Notes: generated by a model not told the origin, from the letters alone. Positions 1,673 through 56,386 are shown, counted from the stretch's first letter. The stretch is 64,000 nucleotides of DNA from Mycobacteriales bacterium (GCA_035714445.1 DASTLY010000146.1:17730-81729); one strand, 5' to 3'. Made by a program: numbers and translations.

Positions 1673-3022
1673 ATGACCGACGACGCCCGCCCGGGCACCG
1701 ACGCCGCGGCCGCGGCCAGTGCCCGCGCCTGGCTGGTCTGGGGCGTCGCGCTGCTGGCGTACGCCGTGGCGGTGTTCCACCGCGCGTCGCTGGGGGTCGC
1801 CGGGACCGCGGCGCAGGAGCGGTTCTCGGCCGGCGCGTCGGCGGTCTCGCTGTTCGTGGTGCTGCAGCTCGCCGTCTACGCGGCCCTGCAGGTGCCCGTC
1901 GGGGTCGCCCTGGACCGGCTCGGGTCACGCCGGATGGTCCTGCTCGGGGCGCTGACCATGGCCGCCGGCCAGCTCGCCCTGTCGCTGGCGCACGACGTGC
2001 CGACCGCGATCGGCGCCCGGGTGCTGGTGGGCGCCGGCGACGCGATGACGTTCATCAGTGTCCTGCGGCTGGTGTCGCTGTGGTTTCCCGGCCGGCTGGT
2101 CCCGGTGGTCACCCAGCTGACGGGGATCCTCGGCCAGGCCGGGCAGGTCGTGGCGGCGTACCCGCTGGTGGCGCTGCTGGGCTCGGCCTCGTGGGGGGCG
2201 ACCTTCGCAGGCGCCGCCGCGGTCGGCGTGCTCGTCGCCGTGCTGGTGGCGGTCGCCGTCCGCGACGTCCCGCCCGGCGTGCGCGTCGACCCGCCGGCCG
2301 ACCTGGGCGAGGTGCGCGCCAACCTGCGGGACGCCTGGCGCGAGCCGGGCACCCGCATCGGCCTGTTCACCCACCTGGCCACCCAGTTCTCCGGGACGGT
2401 CTTCGCCCTGCTCTGGGGCTTCCCGTTCCTCACCGTCGGCGAGGGCGTGTCCCCCGGCACCGCCGCCCTGCTGCTGACGCTGCTCGTGGTCGTCGGGATG
2501 CTGTTCGCGCCCGTCCTCGGGCAGCTGTGCGCCCGCTGGCCGATGCGCCGCTCGGTCCTGGTGTTCGGGATCCTCGGCGCCACGGCGACCACCTGGACGG
2601 TGGTGCTGGCCTGGCCCGGCCGGGCACCCCTGCCGCTGCTCGTCCTGCTCGTCGCGGTGCTCGGCACCAACGGTCCCGGCTCGATGATCGGCTTCGACTA
2701 CGCGCGTACGGAGAACCCGGCCAGCCGCCTCGGCAGCGCCAGCGGCGTCGTCAACGTCGGCGGCTTCGTCGCCTCGCTGACCCTGATGCTCGGCGTCGGC
2801 GTCGTCCTGGACCAGCTCACCCCCGGCAGCTCGACCGACTACTCCCGCGACGCCTTCCGCGCGGCCTTCACGCTGCAGTACGTGCTCTGGGCGATCGGGC
2901 TGTACGGCGTCGTCAAGCACCGCCGCCAGCTGCGCATGCGGCTGGCCCGCGACGGGGTGATCCTGGCGCCGCTGGGCACCGCCGTGCGCGCCCGGCTGCG
3001 CGGCGGCTCCGCGTACGTCTGA
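1673..3022 (+). CDS. MFS transporter
   Basis: The protein is about 450 aa and highly hydrophobic, with about 12 predicted TM segments and an MFS-like loop (DRLGSRRMVLLGA). The track start is TTG 1661. The in-frame ATG 1673 (MTDDARPG) is preferred. Confidence 0.88.
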   Translation: MTDDARPGTDAAAAASARAWLVWGVALLAYAVAVFHRASLGVAGTAAQERFSAGASAVSLFVVLQLAVYAALQVPVGVALDRLGSRRMVLLGALTMAAGQLALSLAHDVPTAIGARVLVGAGDAMTFISVLRLVSLWFPGRLVPVVTQLTGILGQAGQVVAAYPLVALLGSASWGATFAGAAAVGVLVAVLVAVAVRDVPPGVRVDPPADLGEVRANLRDAWREPGTRIGLFTHLATQFSGTVFALLWGFPFLTVGEGVSPGTAALLLTLLVVVGMLFAPVLGQLCARWPMRRSVLVFGILGATATTWTVVLAWPGRAPLPLLVLLVAVLGTNGPGSMIGFDYARTENPASRLGSASGVVNVGGFVASLTLMLGVGVVLDQLTPGSSTDYSRDAFRAAFTLQYVLWAIGLYGVVKHRRQLRMRLARDGVILAPLGTAVRARLRGGSAYV

Positions 3023-3026
3023 CCGC

Positions 3027-3614
3027 CTACGGCCCGCCCGGCGCTGCCAGGAACCGCTCCACGGAGCGTAGGTGCGGGCCGACCAGCCCCGTCCGGGGGT
3101 CGGGCGCGATGAGCAGGCAGTCCGTGTGCGCCCGGGTCCAGGCCCGCACCGGTTCGCTGCGGGCCAGGTCGTCGTCGAGCCACACCAGGCGCCGGGCGGG
3201 CTCGGCCTGCAGCAGCAGCCGCACGATGTCGAACTTCCACCAACGGCCGGACAGCTCGTCGGGCGCCGCCGGGGTGACCCCGGCGAGCGCCGGCTGCCCG
3301 GCGTCGGCGGCACCGGGCGCGGCACCGGCACCGGGCGCGGCCACGTCGGCGTGCGTGCCGGCCACGGGCAGCTCCGGCAGCCCGAGCAGGGTGTGCAGCC
3401 CGCCGTTGGCGTCGTGGCCCCACGTGGTCAGCCACCGCACGTCTGCCTGGTCGATCCAGCTGCGGACGGCAGCCACGACCGACGGCGACCAGCGGATCGG
3501 CCAGGACCGGCCGAGCGCGGTGGCGCTGCCCCGCTGCCAGTCCGGCCAGGAGCTGTCGGGGGGGCCGAGGGCGTTGAGGACGCCGTCGACGTCGACGAGG
3601 ACGAGGGGTCGCAT
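3027..3614 (-). CDS. HAD-superfamily hydrolase-like protein
   Basis: The N-terminus MRPLVLVDVDGVLNAL carries the HAD DxDx(V/T) nucleophile motif. It starts 9 nt after the recD stop on the same strand. Confidence 0.65.
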   Translation of the reverse strand: MRPLVLVDVDGVLNALGPPDSSWPDWQRGSATALGRSWPIRWSPSVVAAVRSWIDQADVRWLTTWGHDANGGLHTLLGLPELPVAGTHADVAAPGAGAAPGAADAGQPALAGVTPAAPDELSGRWWKFDIVRLLLQAEPARRLVWLDDDLARSEPVRAWTRAHTDCLLIAPDPRTGLVGPHLRSVERFLAAPGGP

Positions 3615-3623
3615 GCCGCGGAC

Positions 3624-5426
3624 CTACCCGCCCGCCGCCGACGGACCCGGCGCGGCGTAGACCGCGGTCCCCACCACCCGCCGCAGCCCGCTGGCCCGGA
3701 CCACCTGGCGCTCGACGGCCGCCCGCACCGCCTCGTCGGTGCCGACCACCCGCACCCGCTCCCGCGCCCGGGTCACGGCGGTGTAGAGCAGCTCGCGGGT
3801 GAGGATGGCCGAGACCTGCGTCGGCAGGAGCACGGTCACGGCGTCGTACTGGCTGCCCTGGCTGCGGTGGACGGTCATCGCGTGCACCGGCTGCGCGGCC
3901 GCGAGCCGGGACAGCGGCAGCAGCTGCGCGCCGCCGGGTCGGGCGAACGCCGCGCGCAGCCCGTCAGGGGTCTGCACGACCACCCCGGTGTCGCCGTTGT
4001 AGAGCCGCGCCTCGTCGTCGTTGGCGGTGACCAGCAGGGGGGTGCCGGCCGGCCACTGCCCCGCGTGCCGGGCGGGGGCGCCGGACCAGCGGGCGACCTG
4101 CTGGTTCCAGTACGACACGCCGTACGGCCCGTGCCGGTGCGCGCACAGCAGCCGGTGCCGGGACAGCAGCGCGAGCGCCGGCTCGGCCTGCCCCGCGCCG
4201 GCCGCCCGGGTCAGCTCCCCCGCCGCCTGGACGACCTCGCTGCGCAGCCCGACGACGTCGTCGGTGAGCGTCACCTCGCCACCGGCGTGCAGCAGGTCGA
4301 GCACCCGGTCGGCGTCCCCCGCCCGGACGGCCTCTGCGAGGGCGCCGATGCCGGAGCCGAAGCGGTGCGGCACCCGCAGCCGTACGACGCCGTTGCGCAG
4401 CTGCCGGCGCTCCTCCTCGTCGAGGTCCCCGTCCGCGCCGGCCTCAAGGGTCGACGGCGGGCCGGCGGCGACCGGCGCCGGCCGGTGCACCAGGTCGCTG
4501 AGCACGGCGCCGGCCTCGACGGGCGTGAGCTGGTCGGGGTCACCGACCAGGACCAGCCGGGCGGCCGGCCGCACGGCCTCCAGGAGCCGGGCCATCATCG
4601 TCAGCGACACCATCGAGGACTCGTCCACCACGATGACGTCGTAGGGCAGGTGGTTGCGGGCGTCGTGCCGGAAACGGCTGCGGCTGTCGGGGCGCCAGCC
4701 GAGCAGCCGGTGCAGGGTGGACGCGGTGAGCCCGGCCGGCAGGCCCAGCTCCTCGGCCTGCTCCTGCACCGACTCCTGCAGCCGGGCGGCGGCCTTGCCG
4801 GTCGGGGCGCAGAGCGCGATCCGCGGGGCCGGGCCGCCCTGGTCGAGCAGCAGCCGAAGCAGGCGCGCGACGGTGTGCGTCTTGCCGGTGCCGGGCCCGC
4901 CGGTGACCACGCTCACCCAGCGCGTCGCCGCGACCGCGGCCGCCAGCCGCTGGCGGTCGGTGCCGCCCGCCGGCTGACCCGGGAACAGGGCGGCGAGCGG
5001 TCCGAGGTCGACGGTCGGCGCCGGCCCTAGCGCGCGCTCGTCCAGCTCCCGGCGTACGCGCTGCTCCTGCTGCCAGTAGCGGTCGAGGTAGAGCAGTCCG
5101 TCGACCAGCCGCAGCGGCCGCCACGGCGCCTGCGCCCCGACGGCCACCAGCGGGCTCGTCTGCAGCGCGTCCCAGGACCGCGGCCAGGCCAGCTCCACCG
5201 GTGGCGCGTCCTCGTCGGAAACGACCGACCCGGCGACCTCGGCGAGCTCGACGCAGACCGACCCGGTGCGCACGCCCCGCACCGCGAGCGCGACCGCCAG
5301 CAGCACCTCCTCGGTGCTCTCGCCACCGAGGCGGGCGAGCCGGAGCGCGACGTGCACGTCGGCCTCGGCCAGGACGCCGGCCTCGGCGAACGCGCGCAGC
5401 AGGCCGGTTGCCCGCACGGGGATCAC
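3624..5426 (-). CDS. recD: Exodeoxyribonuclease V alpha subunit RecD
   Basis: This is the C-terminal 600 codons of track ORF 3624..7949. It has Walker A VVTGGPGTGKTHTV, a Walker B/DEAD-like motif YDVIVVDESSM, VLVGDPDQLTPV and TVHRSQGSQY motifs. GTG 5424-5426 overlaps the recB TGA (5423-5425) as GTGA. Confidence 0.93.
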   Translation of the reverse strand: MIPVRATGLLRAFAEAGVLAEADVHVALRLARLGGESTEEVLLAVALAVRGVRTGSVCVELAEVAGSVVSDEDAPPVELAWPRSWDALQTSPLVAVGAQAPWRPLRLVDGLLYLDRYWQQEQRVRRELDERALGPAPTVDLGPLAALFPGQPAGGTDRQRLAAAVAATRWVSVVTGGPGTGKTHTVARLLRLLLDQGGPAPRIALCAPTGKAAARLQESVQEQAEELGLPAGLTASTLHRLLGWRPDSRSRFRHDARNHLPYDVIVVDESSMVSLTMMARLLEAVRPAARLVLVGDPDQLTPVEAGAVLSDLVHRPAPVAAGPPSTLEAGADGDLDEEERRQLRNGVVRLRVPHRFGSGIGALAEAVRAGDADRVLDLLHAGGEVTLTDDVVGLRSEVVQAAGELTRAAGAGQAEPALALLSRHRLLCAHRHGPYGVSYWNQQVARWSGAPARHAGQWPAGTPLLVTANDDEARLYNGDTGVVVQTPDGLRAAFARPGGAQLLPLSRLAAAQPVHAMTVHRSQGSQYDAVTVLLPTQVSAILTRELLYTAVTRARERVRVVGTDEAVRAAVERQVVRASGLRRVVGTAVYAAPGPSAAGG

Positions 5427-8400
5427 CGGCGGCCGGCCAGCAGGTCCGACAGCGCGACGACCAGCCCGGCGGGTGGCTGCCACTCGAACACGCCCGCGCC
5501 GGCCGGGCTGTCCGGGCCGCACATCCCGCGGACGAACAGGTACAGCACCGGCCCGAGGTGCCGCTCCGGCTCGTACGCCGGCTGGCGCCAGCGCAGGAAG
5601 CGGTGCAGCGCGACGGAGTAGAGCAGCGCCTGCAGCACGTAGTGCGAGCGCAGCATCTCCTCGACCAGCGCGGCGGGCCGGTAGTGCCAGGCGGTCAGCG
5701 GCCCGCTGCCGAGCCGGTTGGTCTTGTGGTCGACGACGACGTACGACGGACCCCCGCCCGTCGGCACCCGCAGCACCGCGTCGATGCTCCCGGTCAGATA
5801 GCCGCGCAGGGCCTGCGGCTCGAGGCCGTCGAGCAGGTCGGGGTAGCCCGACAGCGGGCCGAGGTCGTGGTCGCGCAGCAGCGCCGCGACGTCGGCCAGC
5901 CGGGCGTGCGGCACGGCATCGTCGCCGCCGGCCAGCGGCAGCTCGAAGTCGAGCTCGGCGAGGCGGTCGCCCTCGGCGATCTGCGCGAGCGTGCGTCCCA
6001 GGGAGCCGAGCGGCGTGTGCAGCACCGGGTGCAGGCCCTGCGCCAGGGCGGTCGGGTCCACCCCCGAGCCGGGCCGGCGCGCGACCGCCTCGGCGCACCG
6101 CTGCTCCAAGACGGCCGGATCGGGGTCCTCGAGCACCTCGTGCACCAGCGTGCCGAATGCCGCCCCACCCGGCAGGTCGGCCAGCGGGGACGACGGGCTG
6201 TCGACCGGCGGGGCCTCCGGCCCCAGCCCGTCGCCCGTGTCCAGCCCGTCGTCCGTGCCCAGCCCGTCGCCCGTGCCCAGCCCGTCGCCCGTGCCCAGCC
6301 GGTCGCCCGTGTCCAGCCCGTCGCCCGTGTCCTGCTCGTCGTCCTTGGCCGGCGCGTCGGGCTCGCTGCCGACCGCGGCCTCGTGCGCGCCGGCGGTCAG
6401 CGCGCTGTAGGAGGTGCGCCGCCACTGCTCGTCCAGGCTGCGGGTGAACCGGCTCACCGAAAGCGCCGGCGCCCTGCCGCGCGGCCGCTCCCAGCGCGCC
6501 GGGGTGCCCGGCAGGGCGCACTCGCCGGCCGTCCGGCCGCCCGAGGCGGCCGCGACCTCCTCGAGTCGGCGGGCCGCTGCCTCGTCCTGGGGCACGGGCA
6601 CCTGCGCGGCCGGCTCGAGGCCCGGGCCGGCCCCGCCGAACAGCAGCCGGTGCAGGGGCGCTCCCACCGTGGACCGGCTCGGCGCCCAGTGCGCGACGAC
6701 CTGGCACTGGGCGCGGGACAGCGCGACGTACAGCAGGCGCAGGTCCTCGCCGGCCTCCTCGGCGTCGTGCCGGGCGCGCGCGGCGCGGGCACCGGGCGAC
6801 TGCGTCCCGCCCACGTCGAGCACCCGCCGGCCCTGCTCGTCGTGCAGCCGCAGCACCTGCAGGCTGTCGGGTGACCACCGGTCCCAGGCGTACGGGACGT
6901 AGACGACCGGGAACTCCAGCCCCTTGCTCACGTGCACCGTCATCACCTGCACGGCGGCGGCGTCGGACTCGAGCCGCCGGCTGCGTTCGTCGGTGTTCTC
7001 GGTCTGGGCGGTCGCGATCCGGCGCCGCAGCCACTCCACCAGCGCGGTCAGCCCCAGCGAGTCCTGCAGCGCGGCCGCGTGCAGCGCCAGCGCGACGTGC
7101 CGCAGGTCGGTGAGCAGCCGCTCGCCCCCCGGCCGGGACAGCACCCGCGCGGGCAGCTGCCCCTCGGTGGCGAGCACCTCGAAGAAGGCGGCGACGCCGC
7201 GTACGGCCAGCAGGTCGGCCCACGACCGAAGCCGCGGCCCCAGCCGGTCGGCGAGCTCGTCGCCCGCCGCGTCGAGGTCGGCCTCGCTGTGACCGAGGAA
7301 CACCGACAGCGCCGCCGACCGCACCCGGCCGGGCCGGTGTGGCTGCTCGACGGCCTCGAGCAGGACCAGCCACTCCCGCGCGCTCGGGGTCGCGAAGACG
7401 CTGCCGCCACCGGCGAGGACGGCCGGTACGCCGGCCCGGCCGAGAGCCTCGCGCACCAGGGCGCCCTGCCGGTTGGTGCGCACCAGCACGGCCACGTCGC
7501 CCGGCTCCACCGGGCGCTCGAGCAGCCGCGCCGGCCCGGACAGCAGGCGCACGATCTCGGTCGCCACATCCGCGGCGACCGCCTCGCGCACCCGGTCGAC
7601 CCGGGGCAGCCCGCGCACCAGGGGACCGAGGCCGCCACGTGCCAGCCGGCGCAGCCGCAGCGGCGCCCCGGCCCCGGTCAGCCGGGCCTGCGGGTGCGCC
7701 CCGAGCACCGGCCGCACGACGATCCGCGGGTCGCCGAGGGCGGCCTGCCCCCAGAGCTGCTCGAGCGCCCCGAGCAGGACGTCGTCGCTGCGCCAGTTGC
7801 ACGACAGGGTGGCGGTCTCGGTGGCGACCGCACGCGCCGACAGGTAGGTGGTGACGTCGCCGCCCCGGAAGGCGTAGATGGCCTGCTTGGGGTCGCCGAT
7901 CAGGACCAGGGTGGTGTGGCTGTGGAAGGCCAGCCGCAGCACCTCCCACTGCACCGGGTCGGTGTCCTGGAACTCGTCGACGAGCACCACGCGGTAGCGG
8001 TCGCGCACGCGCTGACAGGCCACCGCTCCGTGCGCCGGGTCGGCCAGCGCGTCCCGCAGCAGCACCAGCCAGTCGTCGTAGTCGACCAGCCCGAGCCGGC
8101 GCTTGCGGGCCTCGACCTCCGCCCGCACCCGCGCCGCCGCGGCCGCGCGCTGCCCGGCGACGCCGTCCGCCCCCGGCGGGTGGAGCTCGGCGGAGCGGTC
8201 GCTGCCGACGGCGCGGCGGCCGAGCTCCAGCAGGTCCGCGTAGGCGATGGCGGGCGGGCCGGCCGCCGGGTGGGCGTAGCTGCGCAGGTAGAGGTCGTCG
8301 ACGACGTCCTTCACGAGGTCGTCGACGGACTCGACGAAGGTCGCGGACGGATCCGCGTCGGCGACGACCCCCAGGCCGTTGAGCATCTGCGAGCAGAACG

Positions 8401-42364: not shown

Positions 42365-42396
42365 CCGAACGCGCGTTCGATCGAACGTCTGCTCGA
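42365..42396. promoter_or_regulatory. Two abutting LexA (SOS) boxes
   Basis: CCGAACGCGCGTTCGA is at 42365-42380 and TCGAACGTCTGCTCGA at 42381-42396. The actinobacterial consensus is TCGAAC-N4-GTTCGA. The boxes lie 37-68 nt upstream of the LysM gene. Confidence 0.85.
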
Positions 42397-42521: not shown

Positions 42522-43223
42522 GTGTCGACGAAGGAGCCCACGACGGTGCGCAACCTGCCCGATGGGCCGGCGGACGAGGCCGGGCTGACGCCCCGCCAGC
42601 GCAAGGTGCTCGAGGTCATCCGGGAGTCGGTCGAGCGCCGCGGCTACCCACCCACGGTCCGGGAGATCGGCGTAGCGGTCGGTCTTACCAGCACCTCGAG
42701 CGTGTCTCACCAGCTGATGACGCTGCAGAAGAAGGGGTTCCTCCGTCGCGACCCCAGCCGGCCGCGGGCGGTCGACGTGAGGCTGCCCGGCGACGCCGCG
42801 GCCGCCGACCGCGCCGTCGACGAGGCGGCCGAGCGGGCCGCCCATCCGCAGCCGGCTTACGTCCCCGTGCTGGGCCGCATCGCGGCCGGCGGACCGATCC
42901 TGGCCGAGCAAGCCGTCGAGGACGTGTTCCCGCTCCCCCGTGAGCTGGTGGGAAGCGGCACCCTGTTCCTGCTCAGGGTGGTGGGCGACTCCATGATCGA
43001 GTCAGCGATCGCGGACGGCGACTGGGTCGTCGTGCGTCAGCAGCCCGCCGCCGAGAACGGCGACATCGTCGCCGCGATGATCGACGGGGAGGCGACGGTC
43101 AAGACGTACAAGCGGCACGGCGGACACGTCTGGCTCATGCCGTCAAACGCGAACTACGCGCCGATCGCGGGTGACAACGCCGTCGTCCTCGGGCGGGTCG
43201 TCACGGTGCTCCGCAAGGTGTGA
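42522..43223 (+). CDS. lexA: LexA repressor
   Basis: The protein is 233 aa. It has a winged HTH ([44 protein letters not shown]), the cleavage site region [14 protein letters not shown], and the S24 peptidase Ser/Lys (GDSM ... VKTY). Confidence 0.96.
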
Positions 43224-51549: not shown

Positions 51550-53484
51550 ATGTGCGGCGCCGATCAGGACGACCACGCGGACAACGGGCTGCTGACCGAC
51601 GGCGGCGAGGAGCCGGCCGAGCACGGCGACGGCCTCCTGCCGGCCAGCCGCCGCGGCTTCCTGCTCGGAGCCGGCGCGGCGTTGGCGGCCGGCGGGCTGG
51701 TCCTGCCGAGGGGCCGCGCCTTCGCGGCGACGGCGGCGACCCGCCAGCCGAACGCGCTCGCGCCGGGCGGTGACGCCGGCCCGGCCCAGCGGATCGCCAT
51801 GCACGTGCACACCAACGACGAGGGGTCGGGCCCGCACTCGGCATCGGTCGGCGTCCAGCACAGGAACGCGGACGACATCGGGGTGGACCTGCTGGTGCTC
51901 ACCCCGCACTCGCACCGCCAGCAGGCGACCTTCTACCTCCGGACTCTGGACGACGCGAAGCTCGAGTCGTACACCACCGGCAACGGCGGCAGTACCGCCG
52001 CCGACCGCAGCGGTCCGCGGGACGGGACGCTGCACCTGGTCGCGCAGGCCGGCTCGGGCGGCCCGGTCTCGTGCGGCTACCACCCGATTGCCGCCCAGGC
52101 CAAGAACCGGCTGCGCACGACGATCGCGGGTCACACGGTGACGCTGACCTTCGGGCCGGTGCAGATCACGTCCGGCGCGTGGTTCGAGATGCGGGTCCCG
52201 CTGTCGACGCACGCGGCCTACCGGAGCCTGCAGGCCGGCGCCTACACGCTCGTGCACCGCTTCCGGGACGACGTGGCGCCGGGCAGCAGCTACGAGGACA
52301 ACGGGTTCACCGGGGTCGTGACCCAGCGGGTGCCGCTGCCGGGCGACAGCGTCGCGATCGACATGGTCGAGGCCATCCGGCCGTTCTGGGACGACATGCT
52401 GCCCGAGGACAACTGCTTCTACGACCTGATGCTCACGGCGGTCAGCAACCGGGCCGGCGCCCGGGCCGAGGTGACGCTGGCCAGGGTGAGCATCGACCGG
52501 ACGAGGAGCGATCCGGCCTCGCTGGTGCGCACCTTCTCCGACGCGATCGCCACCTACAGCCCCCGTTACCCGGGGATGACGACCTGGGCGTCGAGCGAGA
52601 TCAGCGGCTACAACAACCCGCACGTGAACTACTTCGGGGTCCCCCAGCGCTTCCCCGACGAGACGCGCGGCACGCCGGACCGGATCGAGGCGCTGTACGA
52701 CGAGTTCGTCGCGCAGGTCCACGCCGAGGGCGGCGCGGTGTCGCTCAACCACCCCTTCGGCCCGACCGGCGGGCCGGCGTTGAACGCGCAGGCCCAGGCC
52801 GCGAAGGTGCGGGAGGTGGCCGGACAGCTGCTGGACAACCGGCGCTTCGACACCCACATCCTGGAGGTGGCGTACTTCGTCCGCGGCTACGTCACCATCG
52901 AGGGCCACCTCGCGCTGTGGGACGTGCTGTCCCAGCACGGGCAGTTCGTGACCGGGAACGGGGCCAACGACGACCACTCCGGGCGCAGCTGGAAGGGGCT
53001 GGGCTTCCTCACCGGGATGTGGGCGCCGTCGCTGTCGCCGCAGGACGTGGTCCAGGCACTGGTCGCCGGGCGCGCCTACGCCACGCACCCCGGCCACTGG
53101 CCCTACGGGCACCTCGACATGCAGCTGCGCGGAGCCGGTGACGGTAACGCGGACGTACCCATGGGCGGCGTCATCGTCTCGGGCGCCACCAAGCGGACGC
53201 TGGACGTGACCGCGGTCAACCTGCCCGCCGGCGGCCGGGTGGAGATCTGGGCCGGCAGCATGGACAGCAGCAGCCTCGACCCCAACACGTCGCCGATCCG
53301 GACGTTCGCCGCGTCCGAGTTCGGCACCTCGGCCGTGTGCAGCACCTCCGTGGGCACCGCGACCGGCCGCTTCTTCCGGGCGGTGGCCAAGAACTCCTCG
53401 GGCCGGATCATCGGCGTGGGCAACCCGATCTGGGCCCTCACGTCCGTCCCCTCCGGCGGGATCCCGGCGCCGCGCCGCTACTGA
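51550..53484 (+). CDS. Tat-exported protein, possible PHP/CehA-McbA-like metallohydrolase
   Basis: It has the twin-arginine motif SRRGFLLGAGAALAAG followed by AFA. The His-rich blocks MHVHTNDEGSGPHS, LTPHSH and LNHPFGP suggest a PHP-type metal site. The functional call is tentative. Confidence 0.6.
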   Translation: MCGADQDDHADNGLLTDGGEEPAEHGDGLLPASRRGFLLGAGAALAAGGLVLPRGRAFAATAATRQPNALAPGGDAGPAQRIAMHVHTNDEGSGPHSASVGVQHRNADDIGVDLLVLTPHSHRQQATFYLRTLDDAKLESYTTGNGGSTAADRSGPRDGTLHLVAQAGSGGPVSCGYHPIAAQAKNRLRTTIAGHTVTLTFGPVQITSGAWFEMRVPLSTHAAYRSLQAGAYTLVHRFRDDVAPGSSYEDNGFTGVVTQRVPLPGDSVAIDMVEAIRPFWDDMLPEDNCFYDLMLTAVSNRAGARAEVTLARVSIDRTRSDPASLVRTFSDAIATYSPRYPGMTTWASSEISGYNNPHVNYFGVPQRFPDETRGTPDRIEALYDEFVAQVHAEGGAVSLNHPFGPTGGPALNAQAQAAKVREVAGQLLDNRRFDTHILEVAYFVRGYVTIEGHLALWDVLSQHGQFVTGNGANDDHSGRSWKGLGFLTGMWAPSLSPQDVVQALVAGRAYATHPGHWPYGHLDMQLRGAGDGNADVPMGGVIVSGATKRTLDVTAVNLPAGGRVEIWAGSMDSSSLDPNTSPIRTFAASEFGTSAVCSTSVGTATGRFFRAVAKNSSGRIIGVGNPIWALTSVPSGGIPAPRRY

Positions 53485-53511: not shown

Positions 53512-54114
53512 TCAGTCGTCCGCCTCGAGCAGGACCGCCTCGAGGTCGGCCTCGACGCCCTCCTGCGCCAACGCCTCGCGCACCACCCGGAACGCGAGGC
53601 CGGCCGGGTAGCCCTTGCGGGCCAGCAGGCCGGCGAGCCGTCGGACCCTGGCCTGCGGCTCGAGGTGCCGGGTCGCGGGCAGGCGGCGGGCCACCAGCTC
53701 CCGCGCGGTGGCCAGCTCCTGCTCCGGCTCGAGGGTGTCGACCGCGTCACGGACCAGCTCCTCGTCCACCCCCTTGCGACGCAGCTCCTGCGACAGGGCC
53801 CGGCCGGCCAGCCCGCGGCCCCGGTGCCGGCTGGTCACCCACATCTCGGCGAACAGCGCGTCATCGATCATGCCCACCTCGGTGAGCCGCCCGAGCACCT
53901 GGTCGGCCGCCTCGGCGGGGACACCGCGCTTGGCGAGCACGGCCGCCAGCTCGGCCCGGGTCCGCGGGGCGTGCTCGAGCTGGTGCAGGCAGATCTGCCG
54001 GGCGACGTCGACCGGGTCCGCGGGAGGCCCGGCCGGCTCCCGCGGCTCCGGCGTCGCTGCGTCGAGCCGACGCCGACCTCCGCTCGGCCGACCGGACCCC
54101 CACCCCGGTGCCAC
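53512..54114 (-). CDS. recX: Recombination regulator RecX
   Basis: GTG 54114 lies 3 nt after the recA stop. The helical repeats are ARQICLHQLEHAPRTRAELAAVLAKRGVPAEAADQVLGRLTEVGMIDDALFAE. Confidence 0.92.
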   Translation of the reverse strand: MAPGWGSGRPSGGRRRLDAATPEPREPAGPPADPVDVARQICLHQLEHAPRTRAELAAVLAKRGVPAEAADQVLGRLTEVGMIDDALFAEMWVTSRHRGRGLAGRALSQELRRKGVDEELVRDAVDTLEPEQELATARELVARRLPATRHLEPQARVRRLAGLLARKGYPAGLAFRVVREALAQEGVEADLEAVLLEADD

Positions 54115-54117
54115 GGC

Positions 54118-56253
54118 CTAGAGGTCGACGGGGACCGGCGCCCGGAGGTCGGCCTCGGCGTCGATCTGCGGCCCGACGCCGAGCTTCTCCTTGATGCGCT
54201 TCTCCACCTCGTTGGCGAGGTCGGGGTTGTCGCGCAGGAACGCGCGAGCGTTCTCCTTGCCCTGGCCGAGCTGGTCGCCCTCGTAGGTGTACCAGGCGCC
54301 GGACTTGCGGACGATGCCGTGCTCGACGCCCATGTCAATGAGCGAGCCCTCGCGGCTGATCCCGACGCCGTAGATGATGTCGAACTCTGCCTGCTTGAAC
54401 GGCGGCGCCATCTTGTTCTTCACGATCTTGGCGCGGGTCCGGTTGCCGACCGCGTCGGTGCCGTCCTTGAGCGTCTCGATCCGGCGCACGTCGATACGCA
54501 CCGAGGCGTAGAACTTGAGCGCCTTGCCGCCGGTGGTCGTCTCCGGGCTGTTGTGCACGAGCACCCCGTCGGCGAGGTAGTTGTGGCTGCCCTCGACCTC
54601 GATGTCGTAGCGGTGCATGGACCGCGTCGGGGGCTTGACCTTGACCTCGAGGACCGTGGCCGGCACCGGCAGCAGCGTCGGCTCGACGAACTCCGGCTCC
54701 ACCGCGAAGCGACCCCTGAAGCGCTCGAGGAGCTTGTACTGCATCGACGGGTGCACGAAGGGCGCCACCAGCTCGTGCAGCTTGGCGGTCTCGTCACCGA
54801 ACACCAGGACCGCCATCTGCCGGGCTCCCCGCCGGCTGAGCTTTGGGTGCAGGTCGAAGCGGTCGGCGAGCGTCTCGACCAGCCGCTCGCGCGAGCCCTC
54901 GCTCATCGCCTGGACGCAGATCTCACTGCGTCCGCTGCCGTCGGCAGTGCGCTCCTGCAGGCCCTTGGCGCGCACCTGGAACGATCCGTCATCCATGTAC
55001 CAGACCGCGAGCGCCAGCGGCGACAGGCCCTTGAGGTAGTCGTAGGACAGGTGCTTCTTGCCGTCGCCCCAGTAGACCGTGCCGCGCAGCTCGGCGAGCT
55101 CGGGCAGCGGCGTGAGATCGACGAAGGCTGCGCCCTTCGCGTTCACGGACCGCGACTGCTCGACGTTCCCGAGCAGCGCGGCCTTCCAGTCAAGGTAGTC
55201 CGCCTGCGCACGGCCGTGGCCCATGCGGAACCGCGTGCCGAGGCTGCCGGCGATCCGGCTCGGCGACAGCGCTGCATCGCCCATCAGGCCACCCAGCACG
55301 ACCTGCCACTGCTGGCCGCTGAGCCGGTGCGGCTGCGACAGCATGACCCGGTCACCGGCGATGATCTCGCCGGCCTCGCGCCACCCGCCCGGGGTGCGCA
55401 CCAGGTGATTGGCGGTCAGGCCCAGCTGCGCCCGCCCGTTGCCACCGGGCTTGGCGACGGTGAGCTGCAGGAACTGGTCGGTGACGCCGTTGTCGAACCA
55501 GTTGACGATGCGCTTGGGGACGACCTTGCCGAGGTCGGGGTCGTACGACAGGACCTCGACGTCCATCTTCTGGTTGACGATCTTGCCGATCTTCTCCTGC
55601 GTGCCGTCCGCCAGGCTTACGCGGGTGCCGTAGGAGAGACAGCCAAACATTACTCCGATCTTCTCGCGCAGCTGGTTGATGAAGATCGCCGTGGTGTTGG
55701 TGTTGGCCAGGGCGCCGGTCATCTTGCGCAGCGCCTGACTCATCAGCCGGGCCTGCAGCCCGACGTGGCTGTCACCCATCTCGCCCTCGATCTCGGCCCG
55801 GGGCACCAGCGCGGCGACCGAGTCGATGACCAGGATGTCGAGGGCGCCGGAGCGCACCAGCATGTCGGCGATCTCCAGTGCCTGCTCGCCGGTGTCGGGC
55901 TGGGAGACCAGCAGGGCGTCGGTGTCGACGCCGAGCTTCTTGGCGTACTCCGGGTCGAGGGCGTGCTCGGCGTCGATGAACGCGGCGATGCCGCCGGCCG
56001 CCTGCGCATTGGCGACGGCATGCAGCGCGACGGTCGTCTTGCCCGAGGACTCCGGGCCGTAGATCTCCACCACCCGGCCACGTGGCAGCCCGCCGATGCC
56101 GAGCGCGACGTCGAGCGCGATCGACCCGGTCGGGATCACCGCGATGGGCGCCCGCACCTCGTCGCCGAGGCGCATGACCGAACCCTTGCCGAAGTTCTTG
56201 TCGATCTGCGCGAGGGCCATCTCGAGAGCCTTTGCGCGGTCCGGTCCTGCCAC
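54118..56253 (-). CDS. recA: Recombinase RecA precursor containing an intein (711 aa; 347-aa RecA after splicing)
   Basis: The N-extein (204 aa) has the P-loop GPESSGKTT and ends [14 protein letters not shown]. The C-extein (143 aa) starts [18 protein letters not shown]. Confidence 0.96.
54550..55641 (-). mobile_element. RecA intein with LAGLIDADG homing-endonuclease domain (364 aa, residues 205-568)
   Basis: It begins [13 protein letters not shown] (block A). The TxxH block B is LTANHLV. The LAGLIDADG motifs are [12 protein letters not shown] and [11 protein letters not shown]. It ends [15 protein letters not shown], followed by Ser+1. Coordinates were derived by codon counting from ATG 56253. 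Confidence 0.93.
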
Positions 56254-56370: not shown

Positions 56371-56386
56371 CCGAACATCTGTTCGA
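56371..56386. promoter_or_regulatory. LexA (SOS) box upstream of recA
   Basis: CCGAACATCTGTTCGA matches TCGAAC-N4-GTTCGA except at the first base. It lies 118-133 nt upstream of the recA ATG. Confidence 0.85.

Follow-up and report, generated by a model that had tools for sequence, protein, structure and literature searches.

Several insertion sites of the RecA protein are occupied by described inteins. In Table 1 of Topilina et al. (2015; PMC4513877), the intein of Mycobacterium leprae is placed at site b (206-570) and that of M. tuberculosis at site a (252-691), and site-b RecA inteins are also tabulated for Verrucosispora maris, Saccharomonospora spp., Thermomonospora curvata, Isoptericola variabilis and Thermobifida fusca; the same table gives sites b and c2 together for Thermobifida, and site a or site b for different strains of M. 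canettii. RecA inteins were counted in 56 bacterial genomes by another survey (PMC4760082). Here we describe the recA gene on a stretch of 64,000 nucleotides of DNA assigned to a Mycobacteriales bacterium (GCA_035714445.1 DASTLY010000146.1:17730-81729, hereafter the window), which originates from a metagenome assembly (ENA ERZ27253086, contig k141_900144). With a probability of about 0.9 by our estimate, this gene, an SOS-regulated recA of an uncultured, soil-type, high-GC actinomycete (Frankiales/GTDB Mycobacteriales kin), carries a genuine class-1 intein belonging to the M. leprae-type (b) allele of RecA inteins, for which a mechanism of splicing and homing is proposed below. This reading is supported directly by the anatomy of the insert, its homology, its insertion site, the conservation of its residues, its predicted fold and the purifying selection on it; splicing and endonuclease activity of the window intein would be expected from its sequence.

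The recA precursor is encoded on the minus strand (54118..56253) by an open reading frame (ORF) of 711 codons, with a GTG start codon and the stop codon at 54118-54120, and the predicted product is 76.9 kDa in size. A ribosome-binding site, GGAGGA, is located 5 nt 5' of the start codon. On the precursor, the Pfam model RecA (E=2.4e-135) was broken into two matched stretches, the N-terminal one covering residues 8-205, and LAGLIDADG_2 was placed inside the split model; RecA_C was matched in addition, and TIGR02012 gave a score of 547 bits. The N-extein (RecA residues 1-204; 55642..56253, minus strand as all features of this gene), including the P-loop GPESSGKT (56035-56058), is followed by an insert of 364 amino acids (aa), 40.1 kDa in size (protein residues 205-568; 54550..55641), which begins with CLSYGT and ends with VLVHN, and then by the C-extein (residues 205-347 of the spliced RecA; 54121..54549), which starts with Ser+1 (SPETTTGG...) and includes the RecA_C match (E=5.9e-26). 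A preliminary description of this DNA, made from the sequence alone, had given the same ORF length and the same borders of the insert, exact to the base. As it had also stated, deletion of the insert in silico restored a contiguous canonical RecA of 347 aa (36.8 kDa), in which REKIGVMFG is joined to SPETT. The junction in the intein-less form of recA reads GAGAAGATCGGCGTGATGTTCGGC/AGCCCCGAGACCACCACCGGTGGC (here and below, a slash marks an insertion or splice point). The restored RecA junction was identical in 104 of the 120 closest intein-less RecA proteins, and was uninterrupted, being either identical or a one-residue variant, in 119 of them; Ser+1 is likewise the native RecA residue in 119 of these 120. 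The proper annotation of the gene is "intein-containing recombinase RecA", with the protein of 347 aa (36.8 kDa) as its mature product.

The insertion site was determined by comparison with the two mycobacterial systems. The genuine RECA_MYCLE record (P0282) was recovered as a cluster member of a 99%-identical match (P0246). The window RecA and RECA_MYCLE are collinear, both 711 aa in length, with an identity of 72% overall, 61% between the full-length inteins and 85% between the exteins, and the junction KIGVMFG/C...VHN/SPETTTGG is identical in the two proteins. The M. leprae intein corresponds in the alignment to residues 206-570 of RecA, in agreement with "b (206-570)" of PMC4513877, and thus the window intein is located at site b. 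Both this assignment and the resemblance of the N-terminal block to the N-terminus of the M. leprae intein had been proposed in the preliminary description, and both were confirmed by the alignment to RECA_MYCLE. The M. leprae RecA intein (PI-MleI; UniProt P35901, 206-570) shares with the window intein the HINT splicing fold, an I-SceI-like LAGLIDADG domain, Cys1 and Ser+1, and is of nearly the same length (365 aa versus 364 aa), but the two differ in about 39% of the intein residues. The splicing parts are better conserved between the two inteins (N-terminal, 64% identity; C-terminal, 71%) than the endonuclease, the most diverged part, at 58%. LAGLIDADG motif 1 ends with GDG in M. leprae but with GDA in the window intein, and the host also differs, being an uncultured non-mycobacterial actinomycete.

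In contrast, the M. tuberculosis-type a site (54391..54423) is unoccupied in the window RecA, with the sequence VKNK/MAPPFKQ contiguous, as expected from the earlier claim that the M. tuberculosis site is not the one used. The M. tuberculosis intein, PI-MtuI, resembles the window intein in its RecA host protein, HINT splicing fold (35% identity over about 100 residues), class 1 assignment and Cys1, but it is inserted at KNK/C...HN/CSPPFK (residues 252-691), is 440 aa in length, and is followed by Cys instead of Ser as the +1 residue. Its endonuclease domain is also different, and outside the splicing blocks PI-MtuI shows no sequence match to the window intein. The location of site a was confirmed by two further recA genes, L046 (Streptosporangiaceae MAG BP_381; MAG, metagenome-assembled genome) and L074 (uncultured Actinomycetes MFD05841.bin.1.133), in which a PI-MtuI homologue (E=2e-64 to 2imz) is present at KNK/CLAEGTR...VVVHN/CAPPFK. 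These two genes (both at 3001-6000) carry site-b and site-a inteins together, a combination that was not found in the 2015 table (PMC4513877). The NCBIfam model NF007072, "intein-containing recombinase RecA", was not reached by the window protein (639 bits against a cut-off of 1024), the matches to the model being confined to the exteins and the N-terminal splicing block.

The splicing domain of the window intein is composed of an N-terminal HINT subdomain (intein residues 1-105; 55327..55641), which aligns to the PI-MtuI splicing domain at residues 1-102, and a C-terminal subdomain (residues 331-364; 54550..54651), which aligns to the PI-MtuI C-terminus (...FDLEVEELHTLVAEGVVVHN). Scores above the cut-off were obtained with both NCBIfam models, intein_Nterm (TIGR01445; 39.2 bits against 24.5) and intein_Cterm (TIGR01443; 31.6 bits against 15.6), and a score under the cut-off with Pfam Intein_splicing (29.2 bits against 35.8). 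Cys1 of block A is encoded at 55639-55641, the block B sequence T76-A-N-H79 (TANH, intein 76-79) at 55405-55416, and block F with D346 at 54577-54609, and block G consists of VLVHN with H363 and N364, followed by Ser+1 (intein 360-365 counting Ser+1). The set of class-1 residues is thus complete (Cys1, T76, H79, D346, H363, N364 and Ser+1), and these residues do not vary among nine diverse members of the family that were aligned. The blocks named in the preliminary description are therefore present at the places given there, and none of the essential splicing residues has been lost. Among solved structures, the M. tuberculosis RecA mini-intein is nearest to the splicing domain (E=2e-13). An AlphaFold (AF2) model of the intein was built on the nine-sequence alignment, with a mean pLDDT (predicted local distance difference test) of 83.8, and was compared with PDB by Foldseek. 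The predicted splicing domain superposed on the M. tuberculosis RecA mini-intein (5i0a/3ifj) with a root-mean-square deviation of 1.2-1.3 Å and 35% identity, and also on the DnaB and DnaE inteins, and the whole predicted structure matched the bifunctional inteins PI-PfuI, PI-SceI and TliVMA.

In the proposed mechanism, recA would be translated as a 77-kDa precursor with the 40-kDa intein inserted between Gly204 and Ser205. We take this point to be equivalent to G204/N205 of Escherichia coli RecA, in the middle of the DNA-binding loop L2, and because the insertion falls in this loop, the precursor is presumably inactive. Splicing would take the canonical four-step class-1 route, in which T76 and H79 help Cys1 to undergo an N-S acyl shift, and proceed by trans-esterification onto Ser+1 and cyclisation of Asn364, helped by H363 and D346, until an O-N shift yields the 37-kDa RecA and the free intein. 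The preliminary description had concluded that RecA activity becomes conditional on splicing, which holds only in the trivial sense that is true for any intein, and nothing indicates that the splicing is regulated. A post-translational switch, in which redox-, metal- or temperature-conditional splicing of a co-opted intein gates RecA and the SOS response, is in our judgment improbable. The position within a functional RecA loop, with the precursor presumably inactive, and the long life of the intein under selection are in line with such a switch, and it is plausible by comparison with two other inteins, those of M. tuberculosis RecA and Pyrococcus RadA; however, the window sequence offers no support for it and indicates no sensor, the intein contains just two cysteines, C1 and C242, of which the latter belongs to the endonuclease domain, and close relatives function without the intein, which is thus dispensable. 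Cys242 (about 54916-54918), in the context GRxEICVxAM, is invariant in the nine diverse family members.

A LAGLIDADG homing-endonuclease domain (Pfam PF03161, LAGLIDADG_2; intein about 106-330; 54652..55326) is nested within the splicing domain, and was detected well beyond chance expectation, with E=1.4e-31 and 110 bits against a cut-off of 25. Both of the LAGLIDADG motifs noticed at first sight of the sequence are present, motif 1 being VLGGLMGDA with D122 (intein 115-123; 55273-55299) and motif 2 LAVWYMDDG with D218 (intein 211-219; 54985-55011). The catalytic pair of I-SceI consists of D44 and D145, and in the HMMER alignment D122 is located opposite D44 and D218 opposite D145. The model of the central domain matched I-SceI with E=1.5e-12 and a template modelling (TM) score of 0.71, and I-WcaI, I-DmoI and I-Tsp061I with TM scores of 0.6-0.7, in agreement with the pseudo-dimeric alpha-beta-beta-alpha-beta-beta-alpha fold of LAGLIDADG monomers with two motifs. 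The likeness to I-SceI therefore includes the fold of the nested endonuclease, the motifs LGDA, WxMDDG and PxMxYKL, and the aligned catalytic Asp pair, and the ending GDA of motif 1 is the same in the window intein and in the active I-SceI. I-SceI differs in being a free-standing protein encoded by a yeast mitochondrial intron, with another DNA target, and the sequence identity is only about 20%. Either free or still borne by the precursor, the I-SceI-like domain (D122, D218) would most likely cut intein-less recA at ...GTGATGTTCGGC/AGCCCCGAGACC..., and the cleavage of intein-less alleles would lead to homing by gene conversion and, in the long run, to a patchy and very wide distribution of the intein.

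By protein search with the intein, a total of at least 1,604 related database proteins were identified (E<=1e-10), the best match listed being 80% identical. The source names include Ilumatobacteraceae, Dactylosporangium, Rhodococcus ruber, Pseudonocardiales, Streptosporangiaceae, Nocardioides, Trebonia, Mycobacterium and Trueperaceae, and some of the proteins are named "intein-containing recombinase RecA". The junction ...FG/C...HN/SPE is common to all 106 protein matches that cover the whole intein. When GTDB was scanned with one genome for each species, relatives of the intein were encoded by at least 541 species genomes from many actinobacterial orders, including Micromonospora, Nonomuraea, Streptomyces, Amycolatopsis, Nocardia, Saccharopolyspora, Plantactinospora, Halopolyspora and many MAGs. 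Among 80 genome loci read for the junction, 76 could be parsed and all of these have the same junction (four were unparsed; L078 is truncated). The identity of the window intein to the genome and metagenome members ranged from 63 to 81%, with none above 81% among the matches listed. The three closest relatives by extein among these matches all carry the intein. They are L002, an Actinomycetales MAG with an identity of 96.9% in the extein and 80% in the intein, L005, from Mycobacteriales, with 96.6% and 79%, and L014, from Frankiales, with 94% and 81%, both of these being MAGs as well. In Thermomonospora curvata (D1AAC0), the site-b intein is located at residues 205-568, numerically the same coordinates as in the window. 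The other site-b RecA inteins of Actinomycetota share the site and the junction consensus with the window intein, of which the sequence is new but the type is not. At the same time, intein-less RecAs with an intact insertion site reach an identity of 94% with the spliced protein, and the named intein-less relatives at 88-91% identity are Frankia, Parafrankia, Angustibacter and Amycolatopsis. In these sequences, the presence of the intein is patchy among close relatives, as expected of a mobile element with empty sites left to invade.

The preliminary description had considered the occurrence outside Mycobacterium to be a taxonomic novelty that would bear on intein spread. By the criterion set in that description, this part is refuted, as site-b inteins are present in the closest relatives, in the at least 541 species genomes and in the 2015 survey (PMC4513877), and non-mycobacterial occurrence was already covered by surveys a decade ago. 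The kind of intein, its site, its architecture and its taxonomic range are all known, and only the sequence itself is new. The window copy adds one sequence but no new principle, and matters little beyond correct annotation; the site-b family as a whole lends itself to studies of intein persistence, since recA alleles with and without the intein are both found in close relatives and selection still acts on the endonuclease domain.

The state of the endonuclease was estimated from the ratio of nonsynonymous to synonymous substitution rates (dN/dS) by the Nei-Gojobori method, which gave medians over 1,346 pairs of 0.22-0.30 (about 0.27-0.29) for the endonuclease and about 0.22 for the splicing subdomains, with the nearest relatives in a similar range. 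For the extein, comparison with the three closest relatives gave about 0.05-0.08. All ratios are subject to a bias, since a GC content of 94% at third codon positions (GC3) compresses dS. Judged by these ratios, purifying selection maintains the endonuclease domain and keeps it from decay, which is consistent with a still-functional mobile element. A degenerate endonuclease was considered separately, and was ruled out by the dN/dS ratio, the alignment of the catalytic Asp residues and the confident predicted fold.

Several points weigh against an active homing intein, and the compression of dS just mentioned is one of them. Purifying selection on the endonuclease fold is no proof that the homing site is cleaved. 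The M. leprae homologue reportedly fails to splice in E. coli, and PI-MleI, the endonuclease of that intein, is reported to cleave atypically, so that activity of the site-b family is not a given. Furthermore, the dS values against the three closest relatives are close to each other for the intein (0.54-0.67) and the extein (0.47-0.58), which suggests local vertical co-inheritance and not recent homing, the comparison being weakly informative in that dS plateaus near 0.5-0.7 at 94% GC3. A rival reading is an intein that still splices but no longer homes, a vertically inherited resident in which the LAGLIDADG domain is kept for structure, so that the precursor can fold or splice, or for some function other than homing. 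We regard this possibility as unlikely, albeit the most serious of those considered here. The similar dS values, the atypical cleavage reported for PI-MleI, the fully ameliorated composition of the intein, and the fact that, in the matches listed, the relatives nearest by extein are also among the nearest by intein are in its favour, but both catalytic Asp residues are kept in alignment with D44 and D145 of I-SceI, the dN/dS ratio of the endonuclease is as low as that of the splicing domain, and the intein occurs patchily, the site being empty in relatives of up to 94% identity. In addition, the distances of inteins and exteins are only weakly correlated (Pearson 0.38, Spearman 0.17; 2,485 pairs), and in an Anaerolineae MAG (L028; Anaerolineae bacterium CG2_30_64_16) the extein is only 64% identical to that of the window and the intein 70%; both observations point to horizontal movement, that is, to horizontal transfer on longer time scales.

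In a related but more doubtful interpretation, the site-b RecA intein would be an ancient and mostly vertical resident of Actinomycetota that is not homing-cycled, its endonuclease being maintained by purifying selection because the intein was co-opted, for instance to gate RecA and the SOS response through conditional splicing. Consistent with this interpretation, intein and extein agree in composition and have similar dS values, and the endonuclease dN/dS is about 0.27. The reading of a site-b intein capable of both splicing and homing remains the preferred one. The site-b intein is also present in genomes labelled Chloroflexota (the Anaerolineae MAG) and Deinococcota (a Trueperaceae MAG, P0036), which suggests cross-phylum horizontal transfer, although binning error is possible.

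A recent horizontal arrival of the window intein, a candidate prompted by a dip in GC content at 55450-55749, was ruled out. The GC and GC3 values are 0.69 and 0.94 for the intein versus 0.69 and 0.95 for the extein, indicating that the insert is not a compositionally recent arrival, and the dip is due to residues rich in K, I and N together with a few A/T-ending codons clustered at residues 200-212. Within these 13 codons over the N-terminal splice junction (55618-55656, minus strand), five of the 40 A/T-ending codons of the gene (GGA, GTA, TTT, TGT and GTA; gene GC3 94%) are located, and A/T-ending codons are mildly enriched at the same positions across 73 family members. The cluster possibly represents a translational pause or a co-conversion tract, or may have arisen by chance.

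The actinobacterial SOS (LexA) box TCGAACAGATGTTCGG was identified upstream of recA (56371..56386, minus strand), its last base being 117 nt upstream of the start codon. A second SOS box (42365-42380, minus strand) ends 142 nt upstream of lexA (42522-43223, plus strand; Peptidase_S24 and LexA_DNA_bind), and thus both core SOS genes are included within the window. Two perfect SOS boxes (TCGAAC-N4-GTTCG) were present in the window versus 0 expected from 100 shuffles. Immediately downstream of recA lies recX (53512-54114, minus strand), which as the longest ORF starts with GTG 4 nt after the recA stop codon and codes for a protein of 200 aa with three RecX helix-turn-helix domains. The SOS box of recA and recX as the next gene downstream together indicate that the host gene is a normal, regulated recA. 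A decayed, non-splicing remnant that would leave recA effectively a pseudogene is refuted at the sequence level and is given hardly any probability: the ORF of 711 codons is intact, every splicing block is conserved, the extein has a dN/dS of only about 0.05-0.08 when compared with its three closest relatives, the SOS box and the ribosome-binding site are present, and recX is co-located downstream, while no points favouring such a remnant were found. Downstream of recX, an ORF of 644 aa (51550-53484, plus strand) is without a Pfam match on record in the public gene call. In the same public gene call, recX is shorter, with 142 aa.

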